This document shows, piece after piece, positions 3,667 through 28,205 of a stretch of DNA of 64,000 nucleotides. Position numbers and translations under genes: made by a program. The notes below the pieces were generated by a model. The model worked only from the letters and a program-made list of their open reading frames with translations. It ran no database searches and was not told where the DNA came from. This DNA is from a plasmid: sequence record NZ_CP044080.1. The stretch is one strand, 5' to 3'. Each line of letters opens with the position of its first letter. Position 1 is the first letter of the stretch.

Positions 3667-4009
3667 GGCATGGTTCCCGTGTCCAGAAGATCGCTCCCAG
3701 CATCGGCGCGAGACTGCCGTCGCCGCAAAGTTTCCTGAAGATCAAGATTGTTGTGCATCAGGAATTGCGCCGATGCGCCGCAAAATGCGCCAGCCTGCCC
3801 GCGCGGCGGTCATCCTGTGAAATCCGGCGGGCGAATCGCGCCATCATACCTTCCCTGCCTGTTTTCCCGTCCCCGGATGCGCTCTGCCGCCCGTTTCCTG
3901 ATCACATGGCGGCTTGGCGGAAGTGCAGGGTGTTTCCCATAATTTTCCTGTTGCGAATTTAATTTTCGTGTAAGTTATATGAGGAAACCCGAACATGACG
4001 GAGACGAAG

Positions 4010-4897
4010 ATGTGCGGCATCGTAGGCCTGTTCCTGAAAAAGGAAGAACTGCGCCCGAAACTTGGTGAGTTGCTGACCGACATGCTGGTCACCATGACCG
4101 ACCGCGGACCCGACAGCGCGGGCATCGCGATCTATGGCGACGAGGCCGGCCGGCTGAAGCTGACCGTCCAGTCGGACACGCCCGAGGCGACCTTCCACGG
4201 CCTTGACGTGGCGCTGTCCCATGCGATCGAAAGCCCGGTCGCGATGCGCGTGATCGACACCCACGCCGTCCTGACCCTGCCGGAGGCGGCCGAGGCGCAG
4301 GCCCGCGCCTATCTGGCCGAAAAGGGCATTCGCGTTATGGGCGCGGGCCATGCGATGGAGATCTACAAGGAGGTCGGCCTGCCCCGCGACGTGGCTCGGC
4401 GGTTCCAGCTGCGCGGCATGGCCGGCAGCCACGGCATCGGCCATACCCGCATGGCGACCGAAAGCGCGGTGACGACGCTGGGGGCGCATCCGTTCTCGAC
4501 CGGCACGGACCAGTGCCTGGTGCACAACGGGTCGCTCTCGAACCACAACCAGATGCGCCGCGTGCTGTCGGAAAAGGGCTTCGCCCCCCAGACCGCGAAC
4601 GATACCGAGGTCGCCGCCTGCTACATCTCGTCCCGCCTGGCCGAGGGCGCGAACCTGGGCGAGGCGCTGGAAGGCACGCTGAAGGACCTGGACGGGTTCT
4701 TCACCTTTGTCGTCGGCACCAGGAACGGCTTCGGCGTGGTGCGCGACCCCATCGCCTGCAAGCCCGCCGTGATGGCCGAGACCGAGGATTACGTCGCCTT
4801 CGGCAGCGAATACCGCGCACTGGCCAACCTGCCCGGGATCGAGACCGCCCGCGTCTGGGAACCCGAACCCGCCACCGTCTATTTCTGGGAACGCTGA
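4010..4897 (+). CDS. mgsA: N-methylglutamate synthase subunit A (class-II glutamine amidotransferase domain)
   Basis: MCGIVGLF gives an N-terminal nucleophile Cys directly after Met, with a GGAGA SD 6 nt upstream of the ATG at 4010; the track ORF starts at 3995 (MTETK). The GATase_2 fold is followed by the GXGXG and FMN subunits and gmaS. Confidence 0.85.
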   Translation: MCGIVGLFLKKEELRPKLGELLTDMLVTMTDRGPDSAGIAIYGDEAGRLKLTVQSDTPEATFHGLDVALSHAIESPVAMRVIDTHAVLTLPEAAEAQARAYLAEKGIRVMGAGHAMEIYKEVGLPRDVARRFQLRGMAGSHGIGHTRMATESAVTTLGAHPFSTGTDQCLVHNGSLSNHNQMRRVLSEKGFAPQTANDTEVAACYISSRLAEGANLGEALEGTLKDLDGFFTFVVGTRNGFGVVRDPIACKPAVMAETEDYVAFGSEYRALANLPGIETARVWEPEPATVYFWER

Positions 4898-4898
4898 A

Positions 4899-5582
4899 AT
4901 GCAGACCATCGACCTGTCATCGACGACCCTGCGCGACCTGAACAGCGCCTTGCAGGCGCAGGCCGCGCAGACCAACCAGACCGAATGGGTGGTCGAGAAC
5001 CCCAAGGGCGCCCATGCCATCGCGGTCGGCCTCGATGCGCCCATCGAGGTCACCGTCAAGGGTTCGACCGGCTATTACTGCGCCGGCATGAACAAGCAGG
5101 CCACCGTCCGGGTCACCGGCTCGGCCGGGCCGGGGGTGGCGGAAAACATGATGTCGGGCACCGTCATCATCGACGGCGACGCCAGCCAGTACGCGGGCGC
5201 CACCGGCCACGGCGGGCTTCTGGTCATCAAGGGCAACGCCAGTTCGCGCTGCGGCATTTCGATGAAGGGCATCGACATCGTGGTGTTCGGCAACATCGGC
5301 CACATGTCGGCCTTCATGGCGCAATCGGGCAATCTGGTCGTGCTGGGCGATGCCGGCGACGCGCTGGGGGACAGCCTTTACGAGGCGCGACTGTTCGTGC
5401 GCGGTTCGGTGAAATCGCTCGGCTCGGACTGCATCGAGAAAGAGATGCGCCCCGAACATATCGAGATCCTCAGGGACCTGCTGCAGCGCTCGGGCGCCGA
5501 TGCCGACCCTTCGGAATTCAAGCGATACGGCTCGGCCCGGACGCTTTACAACTTCCACGTCGATCACGCCGGTGCCTATTGA
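4899..5582 (+). CDS. mgsB: N-methylglutamate synthase subunit B (GXGXG-motif glutamate-synthase C-terminal-like domain)
   Basis: 227 aa, Gly-rich beta-helix (GSAGPGVAENMMSGTVIIDGDASQYAGATGHGGLLVIKGNA). The start is 1 nt after the mgsA stop. Confidence 0.85.
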   Translation: MQTIDLSSTTLRDLNSALQAQAAQTNQTEWVVENPKGAHAIAVGLDAPIEVTVKGSTGYYCAGMNKQATVRVTGSAGPGVAENMMSGTVIIDGDASQYAGATGHGGLLVIKGNASSRCGISMKGIDIVVFGNIGHMSAFMAQSGNLVVLGDAGDALGDSLYEARLFVRGSVKSLGSDCIEKEMRPEHIEILRDLLQRSGADADPSEFKRYGSARTLYNFHVDHAGAY

Positions 5583-6987: not shown

Positions 6988-8292
6988 ATGACAGATCTTG
7001 TCGAGTTCGCCCGCGAAAAGGGCGTCAAATACTTCATGATTTCCTATACGGACCTGTTCGGCGCACAGCGCGCCAAGCTGGCGCCGGCCCAGGCAATCGC
7101 CGACATGCAGGAAAACGGCGCGGGCTTTGCTGGCTTTGCGACCTGGCTGGACCTGACGCCCGCCCATCCCGACATGCTGGGCATGCCGGATGCGAACTCG
7201 GTCATCCAGCTGCCATGGAAAAAGGAAGTCGCCTGGGTCGCGTCGAACTGCGTCATGTCGGGAAACGGCCCGCTGGAACAGGCGCCCCGCAATGTGCTGG
7301 GCAAGCTGGTCGCCGAGGCCGCCGGCATGGGGCTTGAGGTCAAGACCGGGGTCGAGCCCGAATTCTTTCTGCTGACGCCGGACGGCAAGGCGATCTCGGA
7401 CAGCGCCGACACCGCCGTGAAGCCCTGCTATGACCAGCAGGCGATCCTGCGCCGCTATGACGTGATCGCGGAAATCAGCGACTACATGCTGGACCTGGGT
7501 TGGGAACCCTATCAAAGCGACCACGAGGACGCGAACGGCCAGTTCGAGATGAACTGGAAATACGACAATGCCATGGCCACGGCCGACAAGCATTCGTTCT
7601 TCAAGTTCATGACCCGCGCCGTTGCCGAAAAGCACGGCCTGCGCGCGACCTTCATGCCCAAGCCGATCATGGGCATGACGGGAAACGGCTGCCATGCCCA
7701 TATCTCGGTCTGGACCAGGGACGGCCGGAACGCCTTTTCCGACGACAGCAAGGACCTGAGCCTGTCCGATGAAGGCCGGCATTTCCTGGGCGGCATCATG
7801 AAGCACGCCTCGGCCCTGGCGCTGCCCTGCTGTCCCACCGTGAACAGCTACAAGCGCATCAACGCGCCGCGCACCTCCTCGGGGGCGACCTGGGCGCCGA
7901 ACTCGGTCACCTGGACCGGCAACAACCGGACCCATATGGTGCGTGTTCCGGGCCCGGGCCGGTTCGAGCTGCGCCTGCCGGACGGCGCCGTGAACCCCTA
8001 TCTTCTGCAGGCCGTCATCATCGCGGCGGGTCTGTCCGGGCTGAAGTCCAAGGCCGACCCGGGCCGGCGCTGGGACATCGACATGTATGCCGATGGCCAC
8101 ACCGTCACCGACGCGCCGAAACTGCCGCTGAACCTGCTGGATGCCATCCGCGCCTTCGACGAGGACACCGAACTGAAAGGCGCGCTTGGGGACGCCTTCT
8201 CGGCGGCGTTCATCAAGATGAAGACGCAGGAATGGAACGCCTATACCGCGCACCTGACCCAATGGGAGCGGGATACCACGCTGGACATCTGA
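6988..8292 (+). CDS. gmaS: Gamma-glutamylmethylamide synthetase (type III glutamine synthetase family)
   Basis: 434 aa from the ATG at 6988, with a Gln-synt_C catalytic domain (GVEPEFFLL, NGCHAHISVW, SYKRINAPRTSSGATWAPN). It sits directly after mgsABC, as in NMG-pathway clusters. Confidence 0.85.
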   Translation: MTDLVEFAREKGVKYFMISYTDLFGAQRAKLAPAQAIADMQENGAGFAGFATWLDLTPAHPDMLGMPDANSVIQLPWKKEVAWVASNCVMSGNGPLEQAPRNVLGKLVAEAAGMGLEVKTGVEPEFFLLTPDGKAISDSADTAVKPCYDQQAILRRYDVIAEISDYMLDLGWEPYQSDHEDANGQFEMNWKYDNAMATADKHSFFKFMTRAVAEKHGLRATFMPKPIMGMTGNGCHAHISVWTRDGRNAFSDDSKDLSLSDEGRHFLGGIMKHASALALPCCPTVNSYKRINAPRTSSGATWAPNSVTWTGNNRTHMVRVPGPGRFELRLPDGAVNPYLLQAVIIAAGLSGLKSKADPGRRWDIDMYADGHTVTDAPKLPLNLLDAIRAFDEDTELKGALGDAFSAAFIKMKTQEWNAYTAHLTQWERDTTLDI

Positions 8293-8295
8293 ACC

Positions 8296-8340
8296 AGACG
8301 GGAACTGGATCAACTGGTTCCCTGTCGGGCTGGAAAACCC
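8296..8340 (+). terminator. Two consecutive GC-rich hairpins after gmaS, a putative terminator
   Basis: gggaac-N11-gttccc, then gtcgggc-tggaaaacccct-gcccgac (perfect 7-bp stem). There is no clear U-tract, as is common in high-GC alphaproteobacteria. Confidence 0.4.
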
Positions 8341-8450
8341 CTGCCCGACGCGCTAGACAGGGCTGATCGTTTTATGGGTCCTTTGCCTTGTCGCCGTTGC
8401 CACAGCCGCCGCAATCCCTTGTTCCCGGACGGGCGGGACCGTCCGTGCAA

Positions 8451-9098
8451 ATGGTGGTCGATGTCCTCTGCGCGCGCCTGGCCTCGGGGGTCTATCCGCA
8501 AGGCAGCCGCCTGCCGTCCGAACGCCAGTTGGCCGCCAGCATGCAGGTGGCCCGCAACACCTTGCGCGAGGCGCTGGACATCCTTGAGCAGAAGGGCCTG
8601 ATCCTGCGCCGGGCCGGCGCCGGATCCTTCGTCGTGGATCCCGACCGATCGGACAACGCGCTGCCTGTGGTGGCCAGCAGCGGGCCGCTGCATCTGCATG
8701 TGATGCGCGGCATCCTTGAACCCGAAATCGCCCGCCTGGCCATCCTCAACATGTCGCTGGCCCGGATCGAGGCGCTGACCCGGATCACCGAGGACCTGGG
8801 CCGCACCACCGATCCGGCGCAATTCGCCCGGCTCGAGGAGGATTTCCAGCAAAAGCTGGCCGAGGGCACCGGCAACCCGCTGCTGGTGGCCTGCTACGAC
8901 CTGGTGCTCAAGGCGCGCCGTCAGCGCCATCGCAGCGCGATGCTGCGCCGGCTGCTGACGCCGGACCGGATGGACGAGTTGCGCCGCATCCATGTCGATC
9001 TGTTGGGCGCCCTGGCGTCCGGGGACATCGCCGCCGCGACCGACCTGGTCCAGCAGATGCTGATCGACGAACAACGCCTTCTCATGCAAGAGGGCTGA
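8451..9098 (+). CDS. GntR/FadR-family transcriptional regulator (HTH_GntR plus FCD domain)
   Basis: GntR HTH signature (RLPSERQLAASMQVARNTLREALDILEQKGLILRRAGAGSFV) followed by an all-helical FCD-like domain. The ATG at 8451 is chosen over the TTG at 8388. Confidence 0.8.
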   Translation: MVVDVLCARLASGVYPQGSRLPSERQLAASMQVARNTLREALDILEQKGLILRRAGAGSFVVDPDRSDNALPVVASSGPLHLHVMRGILEPEIARLAILNMSLARIEALTRITEDLGRTTDPAQFARLEEDFQQKLAEGTGNPLLVACYDLVLKARRQRHRSAMLRRLLTPDRMDELRRIHVDLLGALASGDIAAATDLVQQMLIDEQRLLMQEG

Positions 9099-9429
9099 CC
9101 GCCCCGGCCGGCCCCATCCCGGCCCGCTGCTGCCACAAAAGGCCAAGCGCCTGCATCTCGCACAGCAGCAGGGGTTCGTGCCGGTCCAGCCAGCCCAGGA
9201 CCGAGCGAAAGCCCGCGATGCGCGCGACGCCCTGGGTCACGCGCACGACGGGCCAACTGCCGATCAGGGCATTGTCGATGCCGAACAGCGCCTCGCCGTA
9301 CCAGCGCGCGGGTCCGAACACCTGCATCATCTGGCCGCCGCGTTTCATCGAATCCAGGGCCTTGGCCGGATCGGTGCTGCCGGCGATTTCGACCGCCTGC
9401 TGCCACAGGTCCAGCGCCGCCGCATATTC

Positions 9430-10368
9430 CTAGCTGACCGCCGACCAATGGCCGGGATAGCGCTGCTGGTATGCCGCGTGAAAGGCTGCGGGCTGGCGAA
9501 AGAAGAAGGCGGTCTCTGCCAGGGCAGGATCGTCGAAGTCGGGAAAGTGAAAGATGAAATTCTCCATGAACGCGGCCGAGGTCCGCGCCACCATGCGCCG
9601 ATAGTTGTCGCCGGTGCAGGACAGGATCGGACCGGCAAAGCCCGCCTGGAAGGCGGCCTCGGTCAGGGCATGGACCATATGCGGCTCGGACGAGCACCAG
9701 CACAGCACCTGCGGGTCGTCCTGCAGCATCGCCGCCACCATGCCCACGGCATCGGCGGTCTGGGGCGGATAGCGCAGTTCGCGGACGATCTGCATCCCCT
9801 CGGCCGCGAAGGCGGCGCGATAGGTGGCCAGCGACGGCAGGCCCATCATGTCCTGCTGGCTGCACAGGGCCACGCGCTTCAGCTCGGGCCGGGTGCTTGC
9901 CAGCCATTCGACCCCCGTCACCACGAAGATCGGATGCACTTCGGCCGGGGCGATCAGCGTGGGCGTCTCGGGGCTCAGGTCAAAGGGCAGCAGCGTCGTG
10001 GTCAGGACGCGCCGCGACATCAGCCAGGGCAGCGCGGGCGCAAGCGAATCGCCCCCCAGCGTCAGGATGATGCGGACGCCGGCCCGCTCGACCAGCTCTG
10101 TCGCGGCGATGCGGGTTTCCTGATCGCTGATGGCCGCGTCGCGCGCCAGGACCTCGACCCTGCGTCGTTGCTGCCCGATCGCCAGGCCGCCCTGTTCGTT
10201 CACCCAGTTGGCCCAGATCAGGCAGCCCTCCAGCCCGGGCGTGCCCCAGGGCGAGGATGGGCCGCTGAGCGGCGCCAGAAATCCGATTCGAATGGGCGAG
10301 CCCGCCCGGTGTAGGTTCCGCGGCAGGCTGCCGGTGACCGCCAGCCGCTGCGCCAAGGATGAATGCAC
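9430..10368 (-). CDS. Peripla_BP_6 (Leu/Ile/Val-binding / AmiC-like) ligand-binding protein, no detectable signal peptide; the frame continues past an in-frame TAG
   Basis: IRIGFLAPLSGPSSPWG...QGGLAIG resembles the N-terminus of the LivK/AmiC fold. The first ~60 codons of the track ORF read through the AT-rich tmm promoter and are not coding; GTG 10368 is a likely start. Downstream of the TAG at 9430-9432, the same frame (9082..9429) encodes ...EYAAALDLWQQAVEIAGSTDPAKALDSMKRGGQMMQVFGPARWYGEALFGIDNALIGSWPVVRVTQG, the normal C-terminal region of this fold. Confidence 0.6.
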   Translation of the reverse strand: MHSSLAQRLAVTGSLPRNLHRAGSPIRIGFLAPLSGPSSPWGTPGLEGCLIWANWVNEQGGLAIGQQRRRVEVLARDAAISDQETRIAATELVERAGVRIILTLGGDSLAPALPWLMSRRVLTTTLLPFDLSPETPTLIAPAEVHPIFVVTGVEWLASTRPELKRVALCSQQDMMGLPSLATYRAAFAAEGMQIVRELRYPPQTADAVGMVAAMLQDDPQVLCWCSSEPHMVHALTEAAFQAGFAGPILSCTGDNYRRMVARTSAAFMENFIFHFPDFDDPALAETAFFFRQPAAFHAAYQQRYPGHWSAVS

Positions 10369-10473
10369 GCGATCCCCCGATTGCCCGAATAACGGCAACG
10401 TTTCGCCAAATTTCGCAGCATAGTTCTTCTTTGCAATTAAAAATGTTGACCGAAAGGGAATCTGAGCCTCTAA

Positions 10474-10518
10474 TTGGTTCAATCCAAAAGAACAGAACCG
10501 CAAAATTGGTTCGAACCA
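10474..10518 (+). promoter_or_regulatory. tmm promoter region with two FadR/GntR-type palindromic operators
   Basis: A perfect 12-bp palindrome TGGTTCGAACCA (10507..10518, 14 nt before the tmm ATG) and an upstream imperfect copy TTGGTTCAATCCAA (10474..10487) lie in an AT-rich intergenic. FadR-subfamily consensus is TGGT-N-ACCA, and the GntR gene is 1.4 kb upstream. Confidence 0.5.
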
Positions 10519-10531
10519 CAGGGAAATCGAC

Positions 10532-11875
10532 ATGACAAAGCGAGTCGCCATCATCGGCGCTGGCCCTTCGGGGCTTGCCCAGCTGCGTGCCTTTCAATCC
10601 GCTTTCCGCAAAGGGGCCGAGATCCCCGAGCTCGTCTGTTTCGAAAAGCAGTCGAACTGGGGCGGGCTGTGGAACTACACTTGGCGCACCGGGACCGACG
10701 AACATGGCGAACCCGTGCACGGCTCGATGTATCGCTATCTGTGGACCAACGGACCCAAGGAGGGGCTGGAGTTCGCCGATTATTCCTTCGAGGAGCATTT
10801 CGGCAAGCAGATCGCCTCGTATCCGCCCCGGGCCGTGATGTTCGACTATATCGAGGGCCGGGTCAAAAAGGCCGGGGTGCGCGACTGGATCCGCTTCAAT
10901 TCGGTGGTGCGCTGGGTCGAATACGACGACCAGGCCGAGGACTTTACCGTCACCGTCCACGACATGGAACGCGACCATGTCTATAAGGAGCGCTTCGATC
11001 ACGTGATCGTCGCCTCGGGCCATTTCTCCAGCCCCAATGTCCCCGAATATCCCGGCTTCACGCATTTCTATGGCCGCATCACCCATGCCCATGACTTTCG
11101 CGACGCGCGAGAGTTCAGCGGACAGGACGTGCTGATCGTCGGCGCCAGCTACTCGGCCGAGGACATCGGCTCGCAATGCTGGAAATACGGCGCGAAATCG
11201 GTCACGTCCTGCTATCGCACCGCACCCATGGGCTTCAACTGGCCCGACAACTGGGACGAAAAGCCGGCACTGGTCCGGGTCGAAGGCAAGACCGCCCATT
11301 TCAGCGACGGCACCAGCAAGACGGTCGATGCGATCATCCTGTGCACGGGCTATCGGCATTATTTCCCGTTCCTGCCGGACGATCTGCGGCTGAAGACGGC
11401 GAACCGGCTGGCGACGGCCGATCTCTACAAGGGGGTGGTCTATGTCCACAATCCCAGGATGTTCTACCTGGGCATGCAGGACCAGTGGTTCACCTTCAAC
11501 ATGTTCGACGCCCAGGCCTGGTATGTGCGCGACATCATCCTGGGCCGCATCGCGGTACCTGCCGACAAGCAGGCGATGCTGGCCGACGTGGCCGAGCGCG
11601 AGGCGCGCGAGGAAGCCGACGACGACGTGAAATATGCGATCAAGTACCAGGGCGATTACGTCAAGGAACTGATCGCGGAAACCGACTATCCCAGCTTCGA
11701 CGTCGATGGCGCCTGCGCGGCCTTCTATGAATGGAAGCATCACAAGGCCGAGGACATCATGGCCTTCCGCAACCACTGCTATCGCTCGGTCATCACCGGG
11801 ACCATGGCGCCGGTGCACCACACGCCCTGGAAGGACGCGCTGGACGACAGCATGGAAGCCTATCTGCGAAACTGA
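10532..11875 (+). CDS. tmm: Trimethylamine monooxygenase (bacterial flavin-containing monooxygenase)
   Basis: 447 aa with FAD GxGxxG (IGAGPSGL), the FMO motif [13 protein letters not shown] and NADPH GxGxxA ([12 protein letters not shown]). The length and motifs match characterised Tmm, and it is followed directly by tdm. Confidence 0.9.
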
Positions 11876-11906
11876 CCCCGTCCTTTCCCCGGCAATGGAG
11901 GCTCGG

Positions 11907-14270: not shown

Positions 14271-14540
14271 AACCGCGGCGCTGACGACAGAGAGGTTCGA
14301 CATGATTGCAGCCCGGCGTCCCAAGACGCTGGCCGGTCCCTTGCAGCCCGATGGCTGCCGGGCGCCGGACGGAACCCCCGCCGCATCGCGGAGGGGCGCG
14401 CCTGTCGCTGCCTGTGACGGACAAAGCAAGGGACTGCCGCCGGGACATAGGGGATGCCCCGGCGCCGCAACATGCCGAGCCAGCCTGAAAGCGACCCGCG
14501 ACAGGGTCCGGGGCGGCTTGTCCAACAGGGAAATGCGCAA

Positions 14541-16352: not shown

Positions 16353-16361
16353 GCCGAAATC

Positions 16362-16387: not shown

Positions 16388-16415
16388 CCAACTAAGACCA
16401 TGGGAGAATGACGAG

Positions 16416-17555: not shown

Positions 17556-17618
17556 GACACCGGCCGGGGGCGGGATCGCCGCCCCCGGCCTCAGCCAAAT
17601 CTGCCAGGGACCAATCGA

Positions 17619-19144: not shown

Positions 19145-19153
19145 GAGGCTCCG

Positions 19154-20197
19154 ATGACCATCACCTTCAACAAGGAAAGCTTTCGCGGCGACTACAGCTA
19201 TCGCAACTCGCCCGCCGCGCTGCGCCGCTTTCCGTTCCCCTTCGACCGCGACGAATACATGTATTCCGTCAATATGGAGCCGCACCACGCCGCCGGTCCC
19301 GACCACAGCGTGTTCCAGCGCCGCTTCGACGTCGACGAGCATTACTTGGCCGAGATGGCGGACCGCGCCATCACGCTGCAGCGCGACCCGGGCCGCTGCC
19401 AGTCCCTGCCGCATATGCGGCTGGCGGGCTGGGATCTGCTGGAACTGATCATGACCGCCAAGTCCGAGGATTACCCGGACCTGTTCGAACTGCACCGCGA
19501 CGGCGACCGCTGGCGCTGGGTGAACAGGCCGCTGGGCATCGACGACACGTTCACCTTCATGGACGATGCCACCCTGCCCTACGGGCCGATGGAATACATC
19601 ACCCGCCAGACCCAGGGCGATTTCGCGTTGCTGGACCAGCGCGAGAACAACCTGTGGATGGATGCAGGCATGGTGACCTCGCAGGCCGACTGGAGCCTGG
19701 ATTTCGACATCGGCATGAACTTCTTCGAATGGCACGCGCCGGTGCCGCGCGCGGCCGAGATGGGCATCTTCCAACGCGCGCTGAAATTCCTGCTGAACGT
19801 GCAGCAGGACACGCCCGCCCGGCGGCTGAACTGGACCATGACCGTGAACCCGCGGCTGGACACGTCGCCCGAGACCTATCCCGAATGGGGCCCGGAAAAG
19901 CGCACGCTGACCCCGGAAAACGTCGGCGAAAAGCAGTTCTTGCGCGTCGAACTGCAGACCTTCTTCCGGCTGCCGCGCTCGAACGCCATCGTGTTCCCGA
20001 TCCGCTGCTATCTGTGCGCGTTGCAGGACATCGTGACGGTGCCGAAATGGGGCCGGCGGCTGCATCGGGTGATCCGCGACCTGCCGGACGACCTGGCGAC
20101 CTACAAGGGTTTCCTGGTCAACAAGCCAATGATCGTCGAATACCTGTCGAAGTTCGACGACGGCGCGCCGACCTCGCCCGGGATCTATCCGGACTAG
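19154..20197 (+). CDS. dmmC: Dimethylamine monooxygenase catalytic subunit (DUF3445 heme-dependent oxidative N-demethylase family)
   Basis: 347 aa, the size and composition of the DUF3445 family. It is the last gene of the dmm operon, and its stop overlaps the convergent regulator stop (CTAG). Confidence 0.75.
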   Translation: MTITFNKESFRGDYSYRNSPAALRRFPFPFDRDEYMYSVNMEPHHAAGPDHSVFQRRFDVDEHYLAEMADRAITLQRDPGRCQSLPHMRLAGWDLLELIMTAKSEDYPDLFELHRDGDRWRWVNRPLGIDDTFTFMDDATLPYGPMEYITRQTQGDFALLDQRENNLWMDAGMVTSQADWSLDFDIGMNFFEWHAPVPRAAEMGIFQRALKFLLNVQQDTPARRLNWTMTVNPRLDTSPETYPEWGPEKRTLTPENVGEKQFLRVELQTFFRLPRSNAIVFPIRCYLCALQDIVTVPKWGRRLHRVIRDLPDDLATYKGFLVNKPMIVEYLSKFDDGAPTSPGIYPD

Positions 20198-21153
20198 GCT
20201 TTCCGGCGCATCGCCTGCCGGCGCCGGGCCGGCGGCATCCCGAAGCGCGCCGCATAGAGGCGCGAGAAATGCGCCGCGCTGGTGAAACCTGTCACCAGCG
20301 CCACGTCGAGCATGCTCAGCGCCGTCTGCTGCACCAGCTCGTCGGCCTTGCGCAGCCGCATCTCGCGATAGAACTCCATCATCGAGGATCCCAGTTGATC
20401 GTTGAACAATCTCTGCAACTGACGCGGGCTGCACCCGACCTGGGCGGCGATCTGTTCCGGCGTCAGCGGGTCGGACAGGTGGCTGAACATCAGGTCCACC
20501 GCCTGCGCAAGCATGGGGTGGCGCAGGTCGAAGCGCTCGGCGACCGGGGATTGCTGCGGCTCGTCGGCGCTGCGGGTGCGCGGGTGGATGAACCATTCGG
20601 CCACCTGCCGGGCGAAAGCGGCGCCGTGGTCGCGGGCGATCAGCGCGCACATCATGTCCAGCGCGGCGACCCCGCCGGCGCAGGTGAAGCGGTCGCGGTC
20701 GATGACATACAGCGCGCGTTCGATCAGCAGGTCGGGCTGGTGCTCGGCCAAGGCGTCGATATGCGCCCAGTGCAGGGTAAAGCGTCGACCCTCCATCAGC
20801 CCCAGCCGGGCCAGGATCGCGGCGCCGCCGGAAATCCCGCCCAGCCGGACCTTGCGGTTCTGCAGCGCCCGCAGCCCCCGCGCCAGCGCCGCATCCTCAT
20901 AGCGCAGCGGGTTGCCGCCGGCCACGACCAGCGCCAGGTCCAGCGCGGCCGGATCGGGCAAGGTCTCGGTCGCGAAACCGCCGCCCGAGGTGGACGCGGC
21001 AAAGTCGCCGGCGACGGAATGATAGCTGGGCCGATAGAGCGCGCGCCCCGCCAGCTGGTTCGCCGCGCGCAGGGGCTCGACCGCCGCGGTCAAGGACATC
21101 AGCGAATAATCCGGCGTCAGGATGAACCCGATGCGCAGCGGTTCGTCCGCCAT
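20194..21153 (-). CDS. GlxA-family transcriptional regulator (DJ-1/PfpI domain plus AraC-type HTH)
   Basis: The N-terminal DJ-1/PfpI-like domain (IGFILTPDYSLMSLTAAVEPLRAAN...CAGGVAALDMM) is followed by a C-terminal AraC HTH (LTPEQIAAQVGCSPRQLQRLF...TGFTSAAHFSRLY). It is divergent from mgdA. Confidence 0.85.
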   Translation of the reverse strand: MADEPLRIGFILTPDYSLMSLTAAVEPLRAANQLAGRALYRPSYHSVAGDFAASTSGGGFATETLPDPAALDLALVVAGGNPLRYEDAALARGLRALQNRKVRLGGISGGAAILARLGLMEGRRFTLHWAHIDALAEHQPDLLIERALYVIDRDRFTCAGGVAALDMMCALIARDHGAAFARQVAEWFIHPRTRSADEPQQSPVAERFDLRHPMLAQAVDLMFSHLSDPLTPEQIAAQVGCSPRQLQRLFNDQLGSSMMEFYREMRLRKADELVQQTALSMLDVALVTGFTSAAHFSRLYAARFGMPPARRRQAMRRKA

Positions 21154-21193
21154 GCCGTCCCCGCGTCACAAAAACCTTGCGCCTGTCCCTTAC

Positions 21194-21222
21194 AGGCAAA
21201 TCCCTGTCCTCTCAAGGCAAAT
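21194..21222. promoter_or_regulatory. Direct repeat AGGCAAAT x2, spaced 21 bp, in the glxA-mgdA divergent promoter
   Basis: AGGCAAAT at 21194..21201 and 21215..21222 in the 128-bp intergenic. Two-helical-turn spacing is typical of AraC-type half sites. Confidence 0.4.
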
Positions 21223-21281
21223 GACACCCGAAATCTTGCGTATCTTTCCTGCGAAGAAAGGCGAATCGGAGTGCTGGCGCC

Positions 21282-22532
21282 GTGAGATATTCGGGATTTC
21301 GTGTCATCAAGGAGGCCCTGACCGGCCACAAGGGCTGGAAGCCGATCTGGCGCAATCCCGATCCGCAGCCGTCCTACGATTACATCATCGTCGGCGGCGG
21401 CGGGCATGGACTGGCAACCGCCTATTACCTGGCCAGGACCTTCAAGCAGGCCCGCATCGCGGTGCTCGAGAAAAGCTGGCTGGGCTCGGGCAACATCGGG
21501 CGCAACACCACGATCATCCGCTCGAACTACCTGCTGCCGGGCAACGAGCCGTTCTACGAATTCTCGATGAAGCTTTGGGAAGGGCTTGAACAGGAATTCA
21601 ATTTCAACGCCATGGTCAGCCAGCGCGGCATCCTGAACCTGATCCACAGCGACGGCCAGCGCGACGCCTATCGCCGGCGCGGCAATGCCATGCTGCTGGC
21701 GGGTGCCGACGCCGAACTGCTGGACCGCGAGCGCGTGCGCGCGATGTATCCCTGGCTGAACTTCGACAATGCGCGCTTCCCGATCAAGGGCGGGCTGCTG
21801 CAGCGCCGGGCCGGGACCGCGCGCCATGACGGCGTCGCCTGGGGCTATGCCCGCGGCGCCGACCGGGCCGGCGTCGACCTGATCCAGAACTGCGAAGTCA
21901 CCGGCTTCCGCATCGAGGGCGGCAGGCTGCGCGGCGTCGAGACCTCGCGCGGCTATATCGCCGCGAAGAAGGTCGGCGTGGCGGTCGCGGGCTCGTCGGG
22001 CCGGGTCATGGCCATGGCCGGAATGCGCCTGCCGATCGAAAGCCATGTGCTGCAAGCCTTCGTCTCCGAGGGGCTGAAGCCGGTGATCGACGGCGTCATC
22101 ACCTTTGGCGCCGGGCATTTCTATGTCAGCCAGTCCGACAAGGGCGGGTTGGTCTTTGGCGGCGACATCGACGGCTACAATTCGTACGCCCAACGCGGCA
22201 ACATGGCGGTGATCGAAGACGTCGCCCAGGGCGGCATGGCGCTGATGCCGGCCATCGGCCGGGCGCGGCTGCTGCGGGTCTGGGGCGGCATCATGGACAT
22301 GTCGATGGACGGCTCGCCCATCATCGACAAGACGCCGGTCGAGGGGCTCTATCTGAACGCTGGCTGGTGCTATGGCGGCTTCAAGGCCACCCCGGCCTCG
22401 GGCTATGCCTTCGCGCATCTTCTGGCCACCGACACGCCGCACGACACCGCCCGCGCCTATCGCCTGGACCGGTTCGAGCGCGGCTATCCCATCGACGAAA
22501 AAGGCATGGGCGCGACGCCCAATCTGCACTGA
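21282..22532 (+). CDS. mgdA: N-methylglutamate dehydrogenase subunit A (sarcosine oxidase beta-subunit homologue, FAD)
   Basis: GTG start. SoxB-like N-terminus (SGF..KGWKPIWRNPDPQPSYDYIIVGGGGHGLATAYYLA) with a DAO fold. Confidence 0.85.
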   Translation: MRYSGFRVIKEALTGHKGWKPIWRNPDPQPSYDYIIVGGGGHGLATAYYLARTFKQARIAVLEKSWLGSGNIGRNTTIIRSNYLLPGNEPFYEFSMKLWEGLEQEFNFNAMVSQRGILNLIHSDGQRDAYRRRGNAMLLAGADAELLDRERVRAMYPWLNFDNARFPIKGGLLQRRAGTARHDGVAWGYARGADRAGVDLIQNCEVTGFRIEGGRLRGVETSRGYIAAKKVGVAVAGSSGRVMAMAGMRLPIESHVLQAFVSEGLKPVIDGVITFGAGHFYVSQSDKGGLVFGGDIDGYNSYAQRGNMAVIEDVAQGGMALMPAIGRARLLRVWGGIMDMSMDGSPIIDKTPVEGLYLNAGWCYGGFKATPASGYAFAHLLATDTPHDTARAYRLDRFERGYPIDEKGMGATPNLH

Positions 22533-22542
22533 GGGCCAAACG

Positions 22543-22836
22543 ATGCTGATCCCCCATCCCCTGCTTGGCCTGCGCGACTCGGAAGAGTTCTCGTATCTCG
22601 GCGATGCCACCCTGCTCGCGCGTCCCGATGGCATGGCCGCCGACGCGCCGCAACGCTTTTACGAATACCAGCACCTGCGCGACAACCCGGCCGGCGTCCA
22701 CCGCGAGTTGTGGTTCCACGAACAGGGCGACCGCAGCTGGCTGGTCGTCACCCGCAACACCGTCACGCATGAGATCCTGGGCGCCGAACTGGCCCGCGAC
22801 GTCAAGCTGGCGATGCTGAAAGGCGGTGCGGCATGA
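22543..22836 (+). CDS. mgdB: N-methylglutamate dehydrogenase subunit B (sarcosine oxidase delta-subunit homologue)
   Basis: 98 aa, MLIPHPLLGLRDSEEFSYLGDA is a SoxD-family N-terminus. Its stop overlaps the mgdC start (ATGA). Confidence 0.8.
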   Translation: MLIPHPLLGLRDSEEFSYLGDATLLARPDGMAADAPQRFYEYQHLRDNPAGVHRELWFHEQGDRSWLVVTRNTVTHEILGAELARDVKLAMLKGGAA

Positions 22837-25763
22837 CCCGGCTTTCCGGCGGTCTGATCGACCGCAACCGCAGCCTGAACTTCAGCTTCGACGGCAAGTC
22901 CTATACCGGGCACGCCGGCGACACGCTGGCCTCGGCGCTGCTTGCCAATGACGTGCGGCTGATGGGCCGCGGCTTCAAATATCACCGCCCGCGCGGCGTC
23001 TTTACCGCGGGCTCCGAGGAACCGAACGCGCTGGTGGAACTGCGCCAGGGCAACCGGCAAGAGCCGAACACCCGCGCCACCGCGGCCGAGCTGTTCGAGG
23101 GGCTGGACGCCCGCAGCCAGAACCATGTCGGCTCGCTGGGCTTCGACCTGCTGGCGGTGAACGACCTGATGTCGCCCTTCTTTGCGGCGGGCTTCTATTA
23201 CAAGACCTTCATGTGGCCCAAGGCGTTCTGGGAAAAGCTTTATGAGCCGATGATCCGTCGCGCGGCGGGCCTTGGCAGCCTGTCGATGCAGGCCGACCCG
23301 GACAGCTATGACTCGGGCTTCCTGCATTGCGACCTGCTGGTGATCGGCGGCGGCGCGGCGGGGCTTGCGGCGGCGCTGACCGCGGCGCGGACCGGCGCAC
23401 GGGTGATCCTGGCCGACGAGGACTTCCGCCTGGGCGGCCGCTTGCTTGCCGAAAGCGCGCCGCTGGACCGGCCGGCGACCGAATGGATCGCCGAGGTCGA
23501 GGCCGAATTCGCCAGCCTGCCGAACCTGCGCGTCATGCGCCGCACCACGGTCTGGGGCGCCTTCGACCATGGCATCTATGGCGCGGTCGAGCGGGTCTCG
23601 GACCACCTTCCGACGCCCGGCAAGCGCGTGCGGCAATCGCTGTGGCGCATCACCGCCAAGCGCGCGATCCTGGCCGCCGGCGCGACCGAGCGGCACATCC
23701 CCTTCGCCAACAACGACCGGCCCGGGGTGATGATGGCGGGCGCGATGCGGGCCTATGCCAACCGCTGGGCGGTCAGCCCGGCCAAGCGGGTGGCGATCTT
23801 CACCAACAACGACGACGGCCACCGCACCGCCGCCGACCTGGCCGCCAAGGGGGTCGAGATCGCCGCCGTGGTCGACAGTCGTCCCGACGCGCCCGCGCGC
23901 GGCAGCTGGCGCACCATTGCCGGCGGCATGGTCACCGACAGCAGGGGCCGGCTGGGCCTGGCCAAGGTCGAGGTGACGCAGAACGGCCGCGCGGAATGGA
24001 TCGACTGCGGCGCGCTCGGCGTCTCGGGCGGCTGGAACCCGAACCTGCATATCGCCTCGCACCATCGCGGGCGGCCGGTCTGGAACGAAGCCGCGCAAGC
24101 CTTCCTGGCCGAGGACGGCAATGTCGCGGGCCTCAGCATCGCCGGCGCCGCCGCCGGCAAGGGCTCGACCGTGCAGGCGCTGGCCTCGGGCGCGCAGGCG
24201 GCGGTCGCCGCGTTGGCCGACATCGGCATCAGCGCGCATCTGCCCGACCTGCCCCGCGCCGAGGACGAGGCGCTGAACCTCAAGCCGCTGTGGCACGTCC
24301 CCGGCAAGGGCCGCGCCTGGGTCGATTTCCAGAACGACGTGACCGTCAAGGACGTGAAGCTGGCCTATGTGGAAAACCTGCGCCCGGTCGAGCACCTGAA
24401 GCGCTGGACCACGCTTGGGATGGCGACCGACCAGGGCAAGACCTCGAACGTGACCGCGATCGCGGTGATGGCGGAACTGACGGGCCAGTCGTTGGGCCAG
24501 ACCGGCACCACGATCTTCCGCCCGCCCTATACGCCGGTCTCCATGTCGGTGCTGGGCGGCGGCGACACCGGCGCGCATTTCCGCCCGCGCCGGCTGACGC
24601 CGACGCATGAATGGGCGGCATCGCAGGGCGCGGTCTTCGTCGAGGTCGGGCAATGGATGCGGGCGCAATATTTCCCCCGCAAGGGCGAGACCACCTGGCG
24701 CCAGACCGTCGACCGCGAGGTTCTGGCCACCCGCGCGGGCGTCGGCATCTGCGACGTGACCACGCTGGGCAAGGTCGACGTGCAGGGCGCCGACGCCGGC
24801 GAGTTCCTGGACCGGGTCTATGCCAATGCCATGAAATCGCTGAAAGTCGGCATGGTCCGCTATGGCCTGATGCTGCGCGAGGACGGCTTTGCCTGGGACG
24901 ACGGCACCTGCGCCCGGCTGGCCGAGGACCAATATGTCGTGACCACGACCACGGCCAACGCCGGCACCATCTACAAGCATATGGAGTTCTGCCGGCAGTG
25001 CCTGTGGCCGGAACTCGACGTGCAGCTGATCTCGACCACCGACGCTTGGGCGCAATTGTCGGTCGCCGGCCCCCATGCCCGCAAGCTGCTGGAGCGGGTG
25101 GTGGACGGGTTCGACATCTCGAACGAGGGCTTCCCCTTCATGGCCTGCACCAACCTGACGGTCTGCGGCGGCCTTCGGGCGCGGCTCTTCCGCATCAGCT
25201 TCTCGGGCGAGTTGGCCTACGAGATCGCGGTGCCGGCGCGCTATGGCAATGCGCTGATGGCGCGGATGATGCAGGTCGGCGCCGACCTGGGCGCCACGCC
25301 CTATGGCACCGAGACGCTGGGCGTCCTGCGCATCGAAAAGGGCCATGCCGCCGGCAATGAGCTGAACGGCCAGACCACGGCGCAGATGCTGGGCATGGGC
25401 AAGATGGTCTCGACCAGGAAGGACTCGATCGGCGCGGTGCTGTCGCGGCGCGAGGGGCTGGTCGCCGACCGCCGCGTGCTGGTCGGGTTCCAGCCTGTCA
25501 ACGCCGCCGATCCGGTCATGGCCGGGGCGCATCTCTTTGCCGAAGGCGCGGCGCAGGATACTGCGAACGACCAGGGCTGGATCACCTCGGCCTGCTATTC
25601 GCCGCATGTCGGCAGCGCCATCGGGCTGGGCTATCTGGTGAATGGCGACAGCCGCAAGGGCGAGGTGGTGGTCGCCGCCAACCCGCTGCAAGGCCAGTCC
25701 GTGCGCGTTCGCGTGGTCTCGGCCCATTTCGTTGACCCCGAAGGAGGCCGTGTCCGTGACTGA
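22833..25763 (+). CDS. mgdC: N-methylglutamate dehydrogenase subunit C (sarcosine oxidase alpha-subunit homologue with THF-binding GcvT-like C-domain)
   Basis: 976 aa, with a SoxA-like N-terminus (FSFDGKSYTGHAGDTLASALLANDVRLMGRGFKYHRPRG), an FAD/NAD GxGxxG (LVIGGGAAGLAAAL) and a C-terminal GcvT fold. Confidence 0.85.
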   Translation: MTRLSGGLIDRNRSLNFSFDGKSYTGHAGDTLASALLANDVRLMGRGFKYHRPRGVFTAGSEEPNALVELRQGNRQEPNTRATAAELFEGLDARSQNHVGSLGFDLLAVNDLMSPFFAAGFYYKTFMWPKAFWEKLYEPMIRRAAGLGSLSMQADPDSYDSGFLHCDLLVIGGGAAGLAAALTAARTGARVILADEDFRLGGRLLAESAPLDRPATEWIAEVEAEFASLPNLRVMRRTTVWGAFDHGIYGAVERVSDHLPTPGKRVRQSLWRITAKRAILAAGATERHIPFANNDRPGVMMAGAMRAYANRWAVSPAKRVAIFTNNDDGHRTAADLAAKGVEIAAVVDSRPDAPARGSWRTIAGGMVTDSRGRLGLAKVEVTQNGRAEWIDCGALGVSGGWNPNLHIASHHRGRPVWNEAAQAFLAEDGNVAGLSIAGAAAGKGSTVQALASGAQAAVAALADIGISAHLPDLPRAEDEALNLKPLWHVPGKGRAWVDFQNDVTVKDVKLAYVENLRPVEHLKRWTTLGMATDQGKTSNVTAIAVMAELTGQSLGQTGTTIFRPPYTPVSMSVLGGGDTGAHFRPRRLTPTHEWAASQGAVFVEVGQWMRAQYFPRKGETTWRQTVDREVLATRAGVGICDVTTLGKVDVQGADAGEFLDRVYANAMKSLKVGMVRYGLMLREDGFAWDDGTCARLAEDQYVVTTTTANAGTIYKHMEFCRQCLWPELDVQLISTTDAWAQLSVAGPHARKLLERVVDGFDISNEGFPFMACTNLTVCGGLRARLFRISFSGELAYEIAVPARYGNALMARMMQVGADLGATPYGTETLGVLRIEKGHAAGNELNGQTTAQMLGMGKMVSTRKDSIGAVLSRREGLVADRRVLVGFQPVNAADPVMAGAHLFAEGAAQDTANDQGWITSACYSPHVGSAIGLGYLVNGDSRKGEVVVAANPLQGQSVRVRVVSAHFVDPEGGRVRD

Positions 25764-26319
25764 GCCCGTCAAGACTGATCTGGCGCCGATCTGCGCCCTG
25801 GGCGCCGCCGTGCCGCAAAGCCGCACCATCGGCGCGGTGACCCTGACCGAGAATGCCGAGCTGGGCCTCGCCTCGCTGGCCCTGCGCCGGGGTGGCGCGG
25901 CGCCCGGGCTGGGCTTCGCCCTGCCCGGCCCCGGCGGCTGGGCCGAAGGCGAGGGCATCGCCGCCTTCTGGACCGGGCCCGACCAGTGGATGGTCGAATT
26001 CCCCGGCCGGGCGGCCTCGGATGTCGCGGCCGGGCTCGCCGGCCCCGGCGTCTCGGTCACCGAGCAGACCGACGGTTTCGCCGCATTCGAGATCGCCGCG
26101 CCCGAGCCGGTACTGGTCGCGCTGATGGAAAAGCTGGTGAACGTCGATCCGGCCCGCTTCGGCCCCGGCTCGGCCACCCGCTGCGGCTTTCACCACATGA
26201 GCATTTTCGTCATCCGTCGCGCGGCGGATCAGTTGGCGGTGCTGGGCATGCGCTCGGCCGCCGGCACCATCTGGCACGCGCTCGCCAACGCCGCCGAACA
26301 GCAGGAGACCCGGGCATGA
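25756..26319 (+). CDS. mgdD: N-methylglutamate dehydrogenase subunit D (sarcosine oxidase gamma-subunit homologue)
   Basis: An AGGAGG SD at 25742..25747 and a GTG at 25750 or 25756 overlap the mgdC stop. The protein is about 187 aa, and its stop overlaps the folD ATG. The longer track ORF (25642) runs inside mgdC. Confidence 0.7.
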
Positions 26320-27203
26320 GCAACATCATTGACGGGAAGTCCTTTGCGTCTGGCTTGCGGGGTCGGGTTGCGTCTGGGGTTTCGGGGCTTGCGGCGCGGG
26401 GGATCGTGCCGGGGTTGGCGGTGGTGCTGGTGGGCGAGGACCCGGCCTCGGCGGTCTATGTCAGGAACAAGGGCGTCCAGACCCGCGAGGCGGGCATGGC
26501 CTCGTGGGAGCACAGGCTGCCGGCCGAGACGGCGCAGGCGGATCTGCTGGCGCTGATCGAGACGCTGAACCATGACCCGGCGGTGCACGGCATCCTGGTG
26601 CAGCTGCCGCTGCCCGGGCACATGGATGCCGAGGCGGTGATCAACGCCATCGACCCCGCCAAGGACGTGGACGGGTTCACCATCGGCAACGTGGGCCTTC
26701 TGGGCACCGGGCAAAGGGCGATGGTGCCCTGCACGCCCCTGGGCTGCATCATGCTGCTCAAGGACCGGCTGGGCGATCTTTCCGGGCTGAACGCGGTGGT
26801 GGTCGGGCGCTCGAACATCGTCGGCAAGCCGATGGCGCAGCTTCTGCTGGCCGAGAACTGCACGGTGACCATCGCCCATTCGCGCACCCGCGACCTGGCG
26901 GCGGTCTGCCGCGGCGCCGACATCCTGGTCGCCGCCGTCGGCCGGCCGCGGATGATCCGGGGCGACTGGATCAAGCCTGGGGCCACGGTGATCGACGTCG
27001 GCATCAACCGCATCGCTGAGGACGGCCGCACCCGGCTGGTCGGCGACGTGGATTTCGACAGCGCGGCCCGGGTCGCCGGCGCCATCACCCCGGTGCCGGG
27101 GGGCGTCGGGCCGATGACCATCGCCTGCCTGCTGGCCAACACGCTGACCGCCTGCTGCCGGGCGAACGGGCTGGCCGAGCCCGATCTGACCGGGGCCGCG
27201 TGA
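26316..27203 (+). CDS. folD: Bifunctional methylenetetrahydrofolate dehydrogenase/methenyl-THF cyclohydrolase
   Basis: 295 aa with canonical FolD motifs ([46 protein letters not shown]). The start overlaps the mgdD stop (ATGA). Confidence 0.9.
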
Positions 27204-27320
27204 GCCTGCGGCGGGGGCGCTGCCCCCACGCCCGTGCCGGGCGTCCCCCCGGGGTATTTGACAAACAGTGAAAGCCGGGCCCGGCGCGTGCCGCGGCGAC
27301 ATGACAGTGGAGAGAGCCCG

Positions 27321-28205
27321 ATGACCAAGTATTGCCTGACCGTCACCTGCCCCTCGACCCGGGGGATCGTGGCCGCGATCTCGACCGCGCTGGCCGAGCA
27401 GGGCTGCAACATCGTCGATTCGAGCCAGTTCGACGATGTCGAGACCGGCCGCTTCTTCATGCGCGTGAGCTTTGTCTCCGAAGAGGGCACCGGGCTCGCG
27501 GCGCTGCAGCAAAGCCTGGCGCCCGCGGCGCAGGCCTTCGGCATGGACTATGCCTTCCACGACGAGGCCGAGAAGATGAAGGTCGTGATCATGGTCTCGC
27601 GCTTCGGGCATTGCCTGAACGACCTTCTCTACCGCTGGCGCATCGGCGCGCTGCCGATCGAGATCGTGGCGGTGATCTCGAACCACATGGACTATCAGAA
27701 GGTGGTGGTGAACCACGACATCCCGTTCCACATGATCCGCGTCACCAAGGAGAACAAGCCCGAGGCCGAGGCGCGCATCCTGGCGGTGGTCGAGGAGACC
27801 GGGGCCGAGCTGATCGTGCTGGCGCGCTACATGCAGGTCTTGTCGGACGCGATGTGCCAGAAGATGTCGGGCCGGATCATCAACATCCACCATTCGTTCC
27901 TGCCGTCTTTCAAGGGGGCGAACCCCTACAAGCAGGCCTTCGAGCGCGGCGTGAAGCTGATCGGGGCGACCAGCCACTATGTGACCGCCGACCTGGACGA
28001 GGGCCCGATCATCGAGCAGGACACCATCCGCGTGACCCACGCCCAGTCGCCCGAGGATTACGTGAGCCTTGGCCGCGACGTGGAAAGCCAGGTGCTGGCG
28101 CGTGCCATCCACGCCCACATCCACCGCCGCGTGTTCCTCAACGGCAACAAGACCGTCGTCTTCCCCGCATCGCCGGGAAGCTACGCCTCCGAGCGCATGG
28201 GCTGA
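27321..28205 (+). CDS. purU: Formyltetrahydrofolate deformylase
   Basis: 294 aa with an ACT-like N-domain and a formyl-transferase domain (IINIHHSFLPSFKGANPY, HYVTADLDEGPII). The ATG at 27321 has a GGAGAGA SD. Confidence 0.9.
   Translation: MTKYCLTVTCPSTRGIVAAISTALAEQGCNIVDSSQFDDVETGRFFMRVSFVSEEGTGLAALQQSLAPAAQAFGMDYAFHDEAEKMKVVIMVSRFGHCLNDLLYRWRIGALPIEIVAVISNHMDYQKVVVNHDIPFHMIRVTKENKPEAEARILAVVEETGAELIVLARYMQVLSDAMCQKMSGRIINIHHSFLPSFKGANPYKQAFERGVKLIGATSHYVTADLDEGPIIEQDTIRVTHAQSPEDYVSLGRDVESQVLARAIHAHIHRRVFLNGNKTVVFPASPGSYASERMG

Follow-up and report, generated by a model that had tools for sequence, protein, structure and literature searches.

A 64,000-nucleotide window of the Paracoccus yeei plasmid record NZ_CP044080.1 was analyzed. 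The block at positions 3995-28205 of this extrachromosomal replicon can be regarded with high confidence as a methylated-amine catabolic island, whose products would convert trimethylamine (TMA) to ammonia and one-carbon (C1) units bound to tetrahydrofolate (THF). The genes are arranged in the order mgsABC-gmaS, a GntR gene, a gene for a binding-protein-like protein (pbp), tmm-tdm, tmoP, dmmDABC, a GlxA/AraC gene and mgdABCD-folD-purU. An initial annotation had proposed a gene set leading from TMA to C1-THF within 24 kb, and its gene list was matched almost item by item by Pfam and NCBIfam models.

The raw lists of open reading frames (ORFs) were full of spurious frames because the G+C content of the window is about 68%. 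Gene models were chosen by the G+C content of the codon positions (GC3) and then scanned with Pfam and NCBIfam models against curated cut-offs. GC3 selected one coherent gene set across the block. All catalytic genes were full length, and the 18 enzyme and transporter genes were intact, with profile coverage from end to end; inactivating mutations in catalytic genes, named beforehand as one finding that would speak against the pathway, were not detected. Family models, close matches to solved or characterized proteins, or the two together bore out every enzymatic assignment of the initial annotation (Tmm with 5IPY, Tdm with 9Q59, GmaS with 7CQL and DmmC with 5LTE). What is said below about which genes are present, whether the catalytic ones are intact, which families they belong to, their synteny and conserved motifs was observed directly. 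The block is not a chance assembly: it was 98.5% identical in DNA over 100% of its 24-kb length to plasmid pYEE1 of P. yeei CCUG 32053, and in 80 other species its genes are again clustered with tmm.

In the proposed pathway, Tmm would oxidize TMA to trimethylamine N-oxide (TMAO), which could also enter through TmoP. Tdm would convert TMAO to dimethylamine (DMA), with formaldehyde passing through an internal tunnel to the enzyme's own THF domain, and DmmDABC, a heme-dependent N-demethylase with its own THF-binding subunit, would convert DMA to monomethylamine (MMA). GmaS, MgsABC and MgdABCD would carry MMA through gamma-glutamylmethylamide and N-methylglutamate (NMG) to glutamate. This part of the route would free the nitrogen and place a third C1 unit on THF, and FolD and PurU, co-transcribed with mgd, would oxidize methylene-THF (CH2=THF) to formate. 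In the predicted regulation, the GntR/FCD protein would act as repressor of tmm through TGGT-N4-ACCA sites of the FadR type, located between the promoter and the ribosome-binding site (RBS); the operons further downstream would be switched on by the GlxA/AraC protein, in the manner of TmaR in Ruegeria.

Relatives of the island and prior knowledge

Besides pYEE1, the block was 97.8% identical to two further P. yeei plasmids, 87% identical to two P. aminovorans plasmids and 82% identical to pAMI6 of P. aminophilus, and 381 records of the plasmid collection had matches to it. Plasmid II of P. aminovorans JCM 7685 (NZ_LN832560.1) carries the identical order mgsABC-gmaS-gntR-pbp-tmm-tdm-tmoP-dmmDABC-glxA-mgdABCD-folD(-purU), at 87% DNA identity over 99% of the block. 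It differs in having an intact pbp and in the position of the XRE-cupin and amt genes, which follow purU there whereas both precede mgsA in the window. Chromid pAMI6 of P. aminophilus JCM 7686 has the same genes, with folD-purU linked to mgd (PMC4543880), but in two clusters; one contains tmm2 without an intact tdm or dmmDABC, and tmm1-tdm-dmmDABC lies elsewhere on the chromid. The same gene order was found in pYEE1, in P. litorisediminis and, without tmoP, in P. shanxieyensis, and Rhizobium johnstonii pRL11 has the same genes within about 19 kb in another order.

The region SPO1548-1588 of Ruegeria pomeroyi DSS-3, which has been studied at the transcriptome and regulator level, encodes the same enzymes; as in the window, a GntR repressor gene lies one uncharacterized gene away from tmm and an AraC-type regulator gene lies between dmm and mgd (PMC13390433). 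In contrast to the window, the R. pomeroyi cluster has the TmoXWV ABC transporter instead of TmoP and is longer and interrupted.

Dziewit et al. (2015, PMC4543880) described methylotrophy islands in Paracoccus and the Roseobacter clade in which genes for the oxidation of TMA and of CH2=THF are joined with the NMG pathway, and they named P. yeei ATCC BAA-599 among the strains encoding the NMG pathway, Dmm and the Tmm/Tdm route. The genes, the pathway, the arrangement and the host species are thus already known. The single contiguous arrangement presented by the initial annotation as a resource does exist in the window, but it is not new, and the island is ordinary because the same island has been described in related bacteria. 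As a pathway map it adds nothing: annotated sequences of it already exist for several P. yeei plasmids. Prior support comes from genetics in P. aminophilus, from Tdm structures and from regulators of the same family and position in Ruegeria. The locus has modest value as a record that a human-associated opportunist has all the genes, in intact form, for clearing TMA and TMAO, two metabolites relevant to the host.

Genes for TMA oxidation, TMAO demethylation and TMAO uptake

The following genes were assigned; here and below, bit scores are given against the curated cut-off where two values are stated.

10532-11875, plus strand: tmm, trimethylamine monooxygenase (TMA to TMAO); NF058570, 838.2 against 675 bits
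11907-14270, plus strand: tdm, TMAO demethylase (TMAO to DMA and CH2=THF); NF053776, 1169.8 against 1100 bits
14541-16352, plus strand: tmoP, APC-family TMAO permease; NF053774, 845 against 690 bits

Residues 4-446 of Tmm covered the NF058570 profile from end to end (1-442 of 443), and residues 1-447 matched the solved structure 5IPY with 879 bits. The flavin adenine dinucleotide (FAD) motif GxGxxG is kept as GAGPSG at residue 9, and the FMO motif FxGxxxHxxx[YF] at residue 179. The permease noted earlier only as an APC family member is TmoP, since it passes the TMAO-permease equivalog NF053774.

Tdm consists of DUF1989, GCV_T and GCV_T_C domains (Pfam). It was about 97% identical, ungapped over all 787 residues, to the TMAO demethylase of Paracoccus sp. 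DMF whose cryo-EM structures (9Q59, 9Q5A and 9Q5L) were published in 2026. The zinc of that enzyme is held by three cysteines (PMC13619132), and the ligands C285, C301 and C365 are all retained at matching positions in the window Tdm when compared with 9Q59. The two proteins are also alike in the THF domain and are separated by about 25 substitutions; no functional difference between them is expected. The structurally characterized enzyme binds THF with a Kd of about 149 nM, and its tunnel carries formaldehyde to the THF site, where methylene-THF forms (PMC13619132). The earlier proposal that a GcvT-like module delivers C1 as methylene-THF has therefore been shown by experiment for a protein about 97% identical to the window Tdm. 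All three GcvT-like modules proposed for the locus were found, with GCV_T plus GCV_T_C in Tdm, DmmD and MgdC.

Genes for DMA demethylation

16416-17555, plus strand: dmmD, GcvT-like THF-binding subunit of DMA monooxygenase; GCV_T plus GCV_T_C
17619-18215, plus strand: dmmA; DmmA-like_N/C, NF041259 110.7 against 60 bits
18215-19144, plus strand: dmmB, FAD/2Fe-2S reductase subunit; FAD_binding_6 plus Fer2
19154-20197, plus strand: dmmC, heme-dependent oxidative N-demethylase (HODM) alpha subunit; PF11927, 234 bits

The dmm set is complete, with four adjoining genes for the D (GcvT-like), A, B (FAD/2Fe-2S) and C (HODM alpha) subunits, and DmmC matched the HODM alpha structure 5LTE with 459 bits. 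The prediction that DmmDABC converts DMA to MMA and a C1 unit is supported by these family matches. The nearest genetic evidence on the predicted heme ligation and turnover of DMA is that from P. aminophilus. There, with homologues of the island genes that are 82% identical in DNA, tmm and dmmDABC have been validated by knock-outs and reverse-transcription quantitative PCR: deletion of tmm1 and tmm2 abolished growth on TMA, and loss of each dmm gene abolished growth on DMA (PMC4543880).

Genes for the proposed N-methylglutamate pathway

4010-4897, plus strand: mgsA, glutamine-amidotransferase-like subunit of NMG synthase; GATase_6/7, class-II GATase
4899-5582, plus strand: mgsB, GXGXG subunit; Pfam GXGXG, 47.8 bits
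5594-6919, plus strand: mgsC, glutamate-synthase-like subunit binding flavin mononucleotide (FMN); Pfam Glu_synthase, 285 bits
6988-8292, plus strand: gmaS, gamma-glutamylmethylamide synthetase of the type III glutamine-synthetase family; TIGR03105, 640.7 against 469.6 bits
21282-22532, plus strand: mgdA (soxB family), NMG dehydrogenase beta-type subunit; TIGR01373, 685 against 529 bits
22543-22836, plus strand: mgdB (soxD family); Pfam SoxD 96.7 bits, TIGR01374 77 bits, under the cut-off of 116.5
22833-25763, plus strand: mgdC (soxA family), with a C-terminal GcvT-like THF module; TIGR01372 1302.6 against 1164 bits, GCV_T 217 bits
25756-26319, plus strand: mgdD (soxG family); TIGR01375 45 bits, under the cut-off of 144, position conserved

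The split glutamate-synthase-like trio is complete by Pfam, with an amidotransferase bearing an N-terminal cysteine, a GXGXG subunit and an FMN domain. The mgsA gene most likely begins at 4010 instead of 3995, because an amidotransferase of the N-terminal nucleophile (Ntn) type needs the Met-Cys N-terminus found there; in pYEE1 the gene is annotated with 295 amino acids. GmaS matched the GmaS structure 7CQL with 613 bits and 9QUR, also deposited as glutamate--methylamine ligase, with 321 bits, compared to at most 235 bits for chains deposited as glutamine synthetase. TIGR03105 and the structure matches thus place it in the type III GS/GmaS clade.

The substrate specificity of Mgs and Mgd is what we infer rather than observe, and the specificity of MgdABCD for NMG rather than sarcosine, which rests on context, is the weakest link of the pathway. 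The genes at 21282-26319 might instead encode a true heterotetrameric sarcosine oxidase serving glycine-betaine, choline or creatine catabolism, in which case the NMG route in the locus would be incomplete. Only models of the "sarcosine oxidase subunit family" matched these genes, with the delta and gamma subunits under the cut-offs, and a GbcAB-like Rieske oxygenase, an OpuA-type betaine ABC transporter and a GbdR-like regulator are encoded 6-17 kb downstream. However, the genes are flanked by dmmDABC and folD-purU and cluster with mgsABC-gmaS in many species; their equivalents are mgdABCD in R. pomeroyi (PMC13390433) and part of the NMG pathway in P. aminophilus (PMC4543880), and the island has no other candidate for an NMG dehydrogenase. 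We consider a sarcosine oxidase at this place very unlikely, and we keep to MgdABCD as the predicted NMG dehydrogenase.

Genes for CH2=THF oxidation

26316-27203, plus strand: folD; NF010785, 495 against 396 bits
27321-28205, plus strand: purU, formyl-THF deformylase (ORF open from 27234, ATG at 27321 probable); NF004684, 432 against 223 bits

The initial annotation had placed folD and purU directly downstream of the C1-releasing genes, and both passed their curated models. Coding overlaps were found at mgdB/mgdC, mgdC/mgdD and mgdD/folD, the last being 4 bp with the junction ATGA. These start/stop overlaps indicate that mgdB to folD form one operon; the overlap at mgdD/folD places the genes of THF oxidation in the mgd operon, to which purU is probably tied along with folD.

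The purU gene was absent from the PLSDB gene tables of pYEE1 (28241-29212) and of P. aminovorans plasmid II (approximately 24300-25300). By tblastn it was intact and 100% identical in pYEE1, and the missing entries are probably a gap in the PLSDB tables rather than a pseudogene.

The pairing of folD with purU bears on what the island may be used for. By analogy with R. pomeroyi, which uses methylated amines as a nitrogen source only (PMC13390433), it could be mainly a nitrogen-scavenging and energy route in which C1 units are burnt to formate, rather than a carbon-assimilating methylotrophy module. It is the oxidative pair of THF genes that accompanies the island, and the scanned parts of the window showed neither serine-cycle genes nor ftfL. 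On the other hand, P. aminovorans and P. aminophilus, which carry the same island, use these compounds as sole carbon source with assimilation genes located elsewhere (PMC4543880). We regard a nitrogen and energy role of this kind as a reasonable possibility, though not as the probable one.

Nonsense mutation in the binding-protein-like gene

9082-10368, minus strand: pbp, type-I binding-protein-like gene (Peripla_BP_6), pseudogene with an in-frame TAG at 9430-9432

The TAG replaces the invariant Trp323, the tryptophan of the AVSWEY motif, indicating that the gene is a pseudogene in this strain. When tryptophan was substituted for the TAG, the Pfam match grew from profile positions 1-277 to 1-339 of 343. 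The stop results from a single-nucleotide polymorphism (SNP) at 9431 (TGG to TAG), where other strains have C and the window has T. Compared with two other P. yeei assemblies, L001 and L002 (CP038092.1, plasmid pYEE32054P7 of strain CCUG 32054; PMC11578231), the window differed by only 3 SNPs in 21.3 kb, this one included. The gene was intact in both assemblies, in pYEE1 and in a sewage metagenome contig. An assembly error was considered and rejected: the independent read set SRR8991244 assembled identically to the window, with the same TAG, while L001, L002, L005 and pYEE1 have TGG. The stop is a real, recent and lineage-specific mutation.

A nonsense mutation in a conserved cluster gene could be the first sign that the island is a decaying or cryptic remnant, its pathway unused in a human-associated opportunist, and P. 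yeei isolates are mostly clinical. Against such decay stand the enzyme and transporter genes (18 of 18 intact), the near absence of differences from the two other isolates, the intact copies of pbp listed above and the 97.8-98.5% identity of the block in three further P. yeei plasmids. We consider a remnant highly unlikely and retain the view of a catabolic island with one broken accessory gene.

The association of pbp with tmm was examined in a scan with Tmm as the query and one genome per species, which gave 80 loci with Tmm 79-89% identical, 77 of them with enough upstream sequence. The binding-protein-like gene was directly upstream of tmm and divergent from it in 61 of these 77 loci; its own neighbor was a GntR gene in 52 of the 61 and an XRE-cupin gene in 8. 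Conversely, when three homologues were taken from a protein search, each proved to be a divergent neighbor of tmm. Mean column identity of the family was 67% in a 25-member sample across genera, and the motifs LLPxDLSP, LCWCSS, FPDFDDP and AVSWEY were invariant. None of the 25 members had a hydrophobic N-terminal segment or signal peptide.

The convergent GntR and binding-protein-like genes share 17 nt at their 3' ends (9082-9098), an overlap also annotated in pYEE1, P. aminophilus and P. aminovorans.

An AlphaFold model of the protein (pLDDT 80.6, pTM 0.80) was matched by Foldseek with probability 1.0 to type-I binding proteins of the LivJ, UrtA and AmiC class, AmiC itself ranking 36-49 with 18% identity. 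A sequence search of the PDB at E<=0.01 gave only weak hits of at most 25 bits, AmiC not being among them. As the fold matches are generic (LivJ, UrtA and aromatic-acid binding proteins), no ligand can be deduced from them. Like AmiC of Pseudomonas aeruginosa (1PEA, 1QO0), the protein has a type-I fold without a signal peptide and is encoded next to genes that it might control. AmiC differs in having the ANTAR partner AmiR, whereas pbp is accompanied by the gene of a GntR/FCD or an XRE-cupin regulator; no ANTAR or AmiR-type partner was found by Pfam among the cluster genes. The "AmiC-like sensor candidate" of the initial annotation therefore fits loosely, for a cytoplasmic protein of the type-I fold, but not as a specific relative of AmiC, and in this strain it is not an intact gene.

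A literature search for the gene, as SPO1552, returned no paper and no published function. By analogy with AmiC or NasS, both of which signal via a partner protein, the gene may tentatively be taken to encode a cytoplasmic partner of the TmoR-type repressor, for example the actual sensor of DMA or TMAO, although we consider this somewhat doubtful. If it were so, the present P. yeei lineage would be a natural null mutant of the sensor.

Putative regulators and the tmm control region

8451-9098, plus strand: GntR/FCD regulator, TmoR-like; Pfam GntR plus FCD
20194-21153, minus strand: GlxA-type AraC regulator, divergent from mgdA; DJ-1_PfpI plus HTH_18/HTH_AraC
10446-10520, plus strand: tmm control region, with repeats and a putative promoter, between pbp and tmm
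10472-10485: repeat AATTGGTTCAATCC in the tmm control region
10490-10500: half-site GAACAGAACCG in the tmm control region
10507-10518: perfect palindrome TGGTTCGAACCA directly before the tmm RBS

Repression of tmm in R. pomeroyi is exerted by TmoR (SPO1553), a GntR protein; DMA and to a lesser extent TMAO were assigned as its effectors from genetics only, with only the DNA-binding domain having been purified, and tmoR is usually parted from tmm by one gene "of unknown function" (PMC13390433). The GntR gene of the window has the same layout, encoding a winged helix plus FCD domain with one intervening gene before tmm, and the order gntR-pbp-tmm was found in 52 of the 77 species. The protein was 42-53% identical to the products of the genes in the tmoR position of Mameliella sp. 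MMSF_3455 and Pacificoceanicola onchidii, both of which have been scored tmoR-positive (PMC13390433).

The second R. pomeroyi regulator, the AraC-type TmaR (SPO1584), is encoded between dmm and mgd and, on a signal from an MMA catabolite, turns on tdm, dmm, gmaS-mgs and mgd (PMC13390433). The GlxA gene of the window occupies the same position between dmmC and mgdA. Its product was 45-48% identical to regulators divergent from mgdA in Celeribacter and 42% identical to that of Rhizobium. Membership of the TmaR clade is defined by more than 44% identity to R. pomeroyi TmaR, and Mameliella served as the proxy for this comparison, its TmaR being 83% identical to that of Ruegeria. The two GlxA-family regulators of the window (20194-21153 and the GbdR-like protein) were equally distant from the Roseobacter-type proteins. 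In view of the low identity to the Roseobacter types and the grouping with Celeribacter and Rhizobium, the GlxA protein was treated as a positional and functional analogue of TmaR rather than a proven orthologue. From homology and position we infer the regulatory logic, in which the GntR/FCD protein is a TmoR-like predicted repressor of tmm and the GlxA protein a TmaR analogue.

The initial annotation listed the GntR and GlxA regulators, both of which are present, but left out a third conserved regulator, the XRE-cupin protein encoded at 1582-2226.

Within 150 nt upstream of tmm, the motif TGGT-N4-ACC[AG] was present in 52 of the 61 loci with pbp and in none of the 16 loci without it, compared with 1.75% of random 150-nt windows. 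GAACCA elements also recur upstream of tmm alongside this motif. The motif presumably resembles the operators of the FadR subfamily of GntR proteins and is a good candidate for the TmoR operator. A weak -35/-10 pair, TTGACC-N17-TCTAAT, was found upstream of tmm by eye and is only a suggestion because it fails the -10 rule of the promoter scan described below.

The motif is not confined to loci with a GntR neighbor: it was present as well at the 8 loci that have an XRE-cupin gene in that place. Of the three SNPs relative to pYEE32054P7, one lies at 10498, inside the GAACAGAACCG half-site, with C in the window and A in that plasmid.

As leads for regulon work, the locus offers a conserved, uncharacterized cytoplasmic binding-protein gene tied to tmm, a conserved, putative FadR-type operator that tracks this gene, and near-isogenic P. 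yeei strains with and without the nonsense SNP.

Several findings weigh against a functional, regulated island as proposed here. One conserved cluster gene, pbp, is broken in this strain. MgdB and MgdD score too low for the curated soxD and soxG models, and models of the sox family do not distinguish an NMG dehydrogenase from a sarcosine oxidase. The GlxA protein shared only 30-36% identity with each of the two GlxA-type proteins of Mameliella sp. MMSF_3455. Scans over 8250-28249 for consensus sigma-70 promoters (3, against 1.8 in shuffled sequences) and for intrinsic terminators (10, against 9.8) were at chance level; transcription units are not defined by them, and the operon statements rest on gene overlaps and short gaps. 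Expression of the genes and growth of P. yeei on methylated amines would be expected, and no such data for this species were found in the papers examined. In its passages on methylamine and methylotrophy, a 2024 comparative paper on P. yeei names only the mau cluster.

Other genes of the window

1582-2226, plus strand: XRE-cupin regulator; Pfam HTH_3 plus Cupin_2
2278-3666, minus strand: Amt ammonium/methylammonium transporter; Ammonium_transp 364 bits, TIGR00836 405.8 against a cut-off of 343.3 bits

The Amt gene had been described as embedded in the island. Since it lies upstream of mgsA and divergent from it, it is adjacent to the interval 3995-28205 and outside it. An XRE-cupin gene adjoins mgsA or dmmC in many loci (tblastn) and stands beside or after purU in P. 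aminovorans and P. aminophilus; the literature examined describes no role for it in methylated-amine regulation.

A second amine-catabolic block was found at 34198-45036. It contains genes for a GbdR-like GlxA regulator, an opine-oxidase-like pair made up of a DAO and a Pyr_redox_2/BFD protein, a CN-hydrolase, an OpuA-type betaine ABC transporter (permease, ATPase with a CBS domain and OpuAC binding protein) and a GbcAB-like Rieske oxygenase and reductase. The matches to GbcA (526 against 670) and GbcB (231 against 500) were under the equivalog cut-offs, so that the substrate may not be glycine betaine. At 54993-59050, a gene for a 378-amino-acid protein resembling the quinohemoprotein amine dehydrogenase alpha subunit (Dehyd-heme_bind plus Qn_am_d_aII) precedes genes for a radical-SAM protein and an aldehyde dehydrogenase, forming a third amine-oxidation module in the window.

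The minus strand at 45790-50230 encodes a TPR protein, a 679-amino-acid radical-SAM protein and two ORFs (46367-47005 and 46998-48194) without a Pfam match. The G+C content falls from about 0.68 to 0.58-0.60 at 60001-64000, which may be foreign DNA; the ORF at 60866-62161 (431 amino acids) had no Pfam match.

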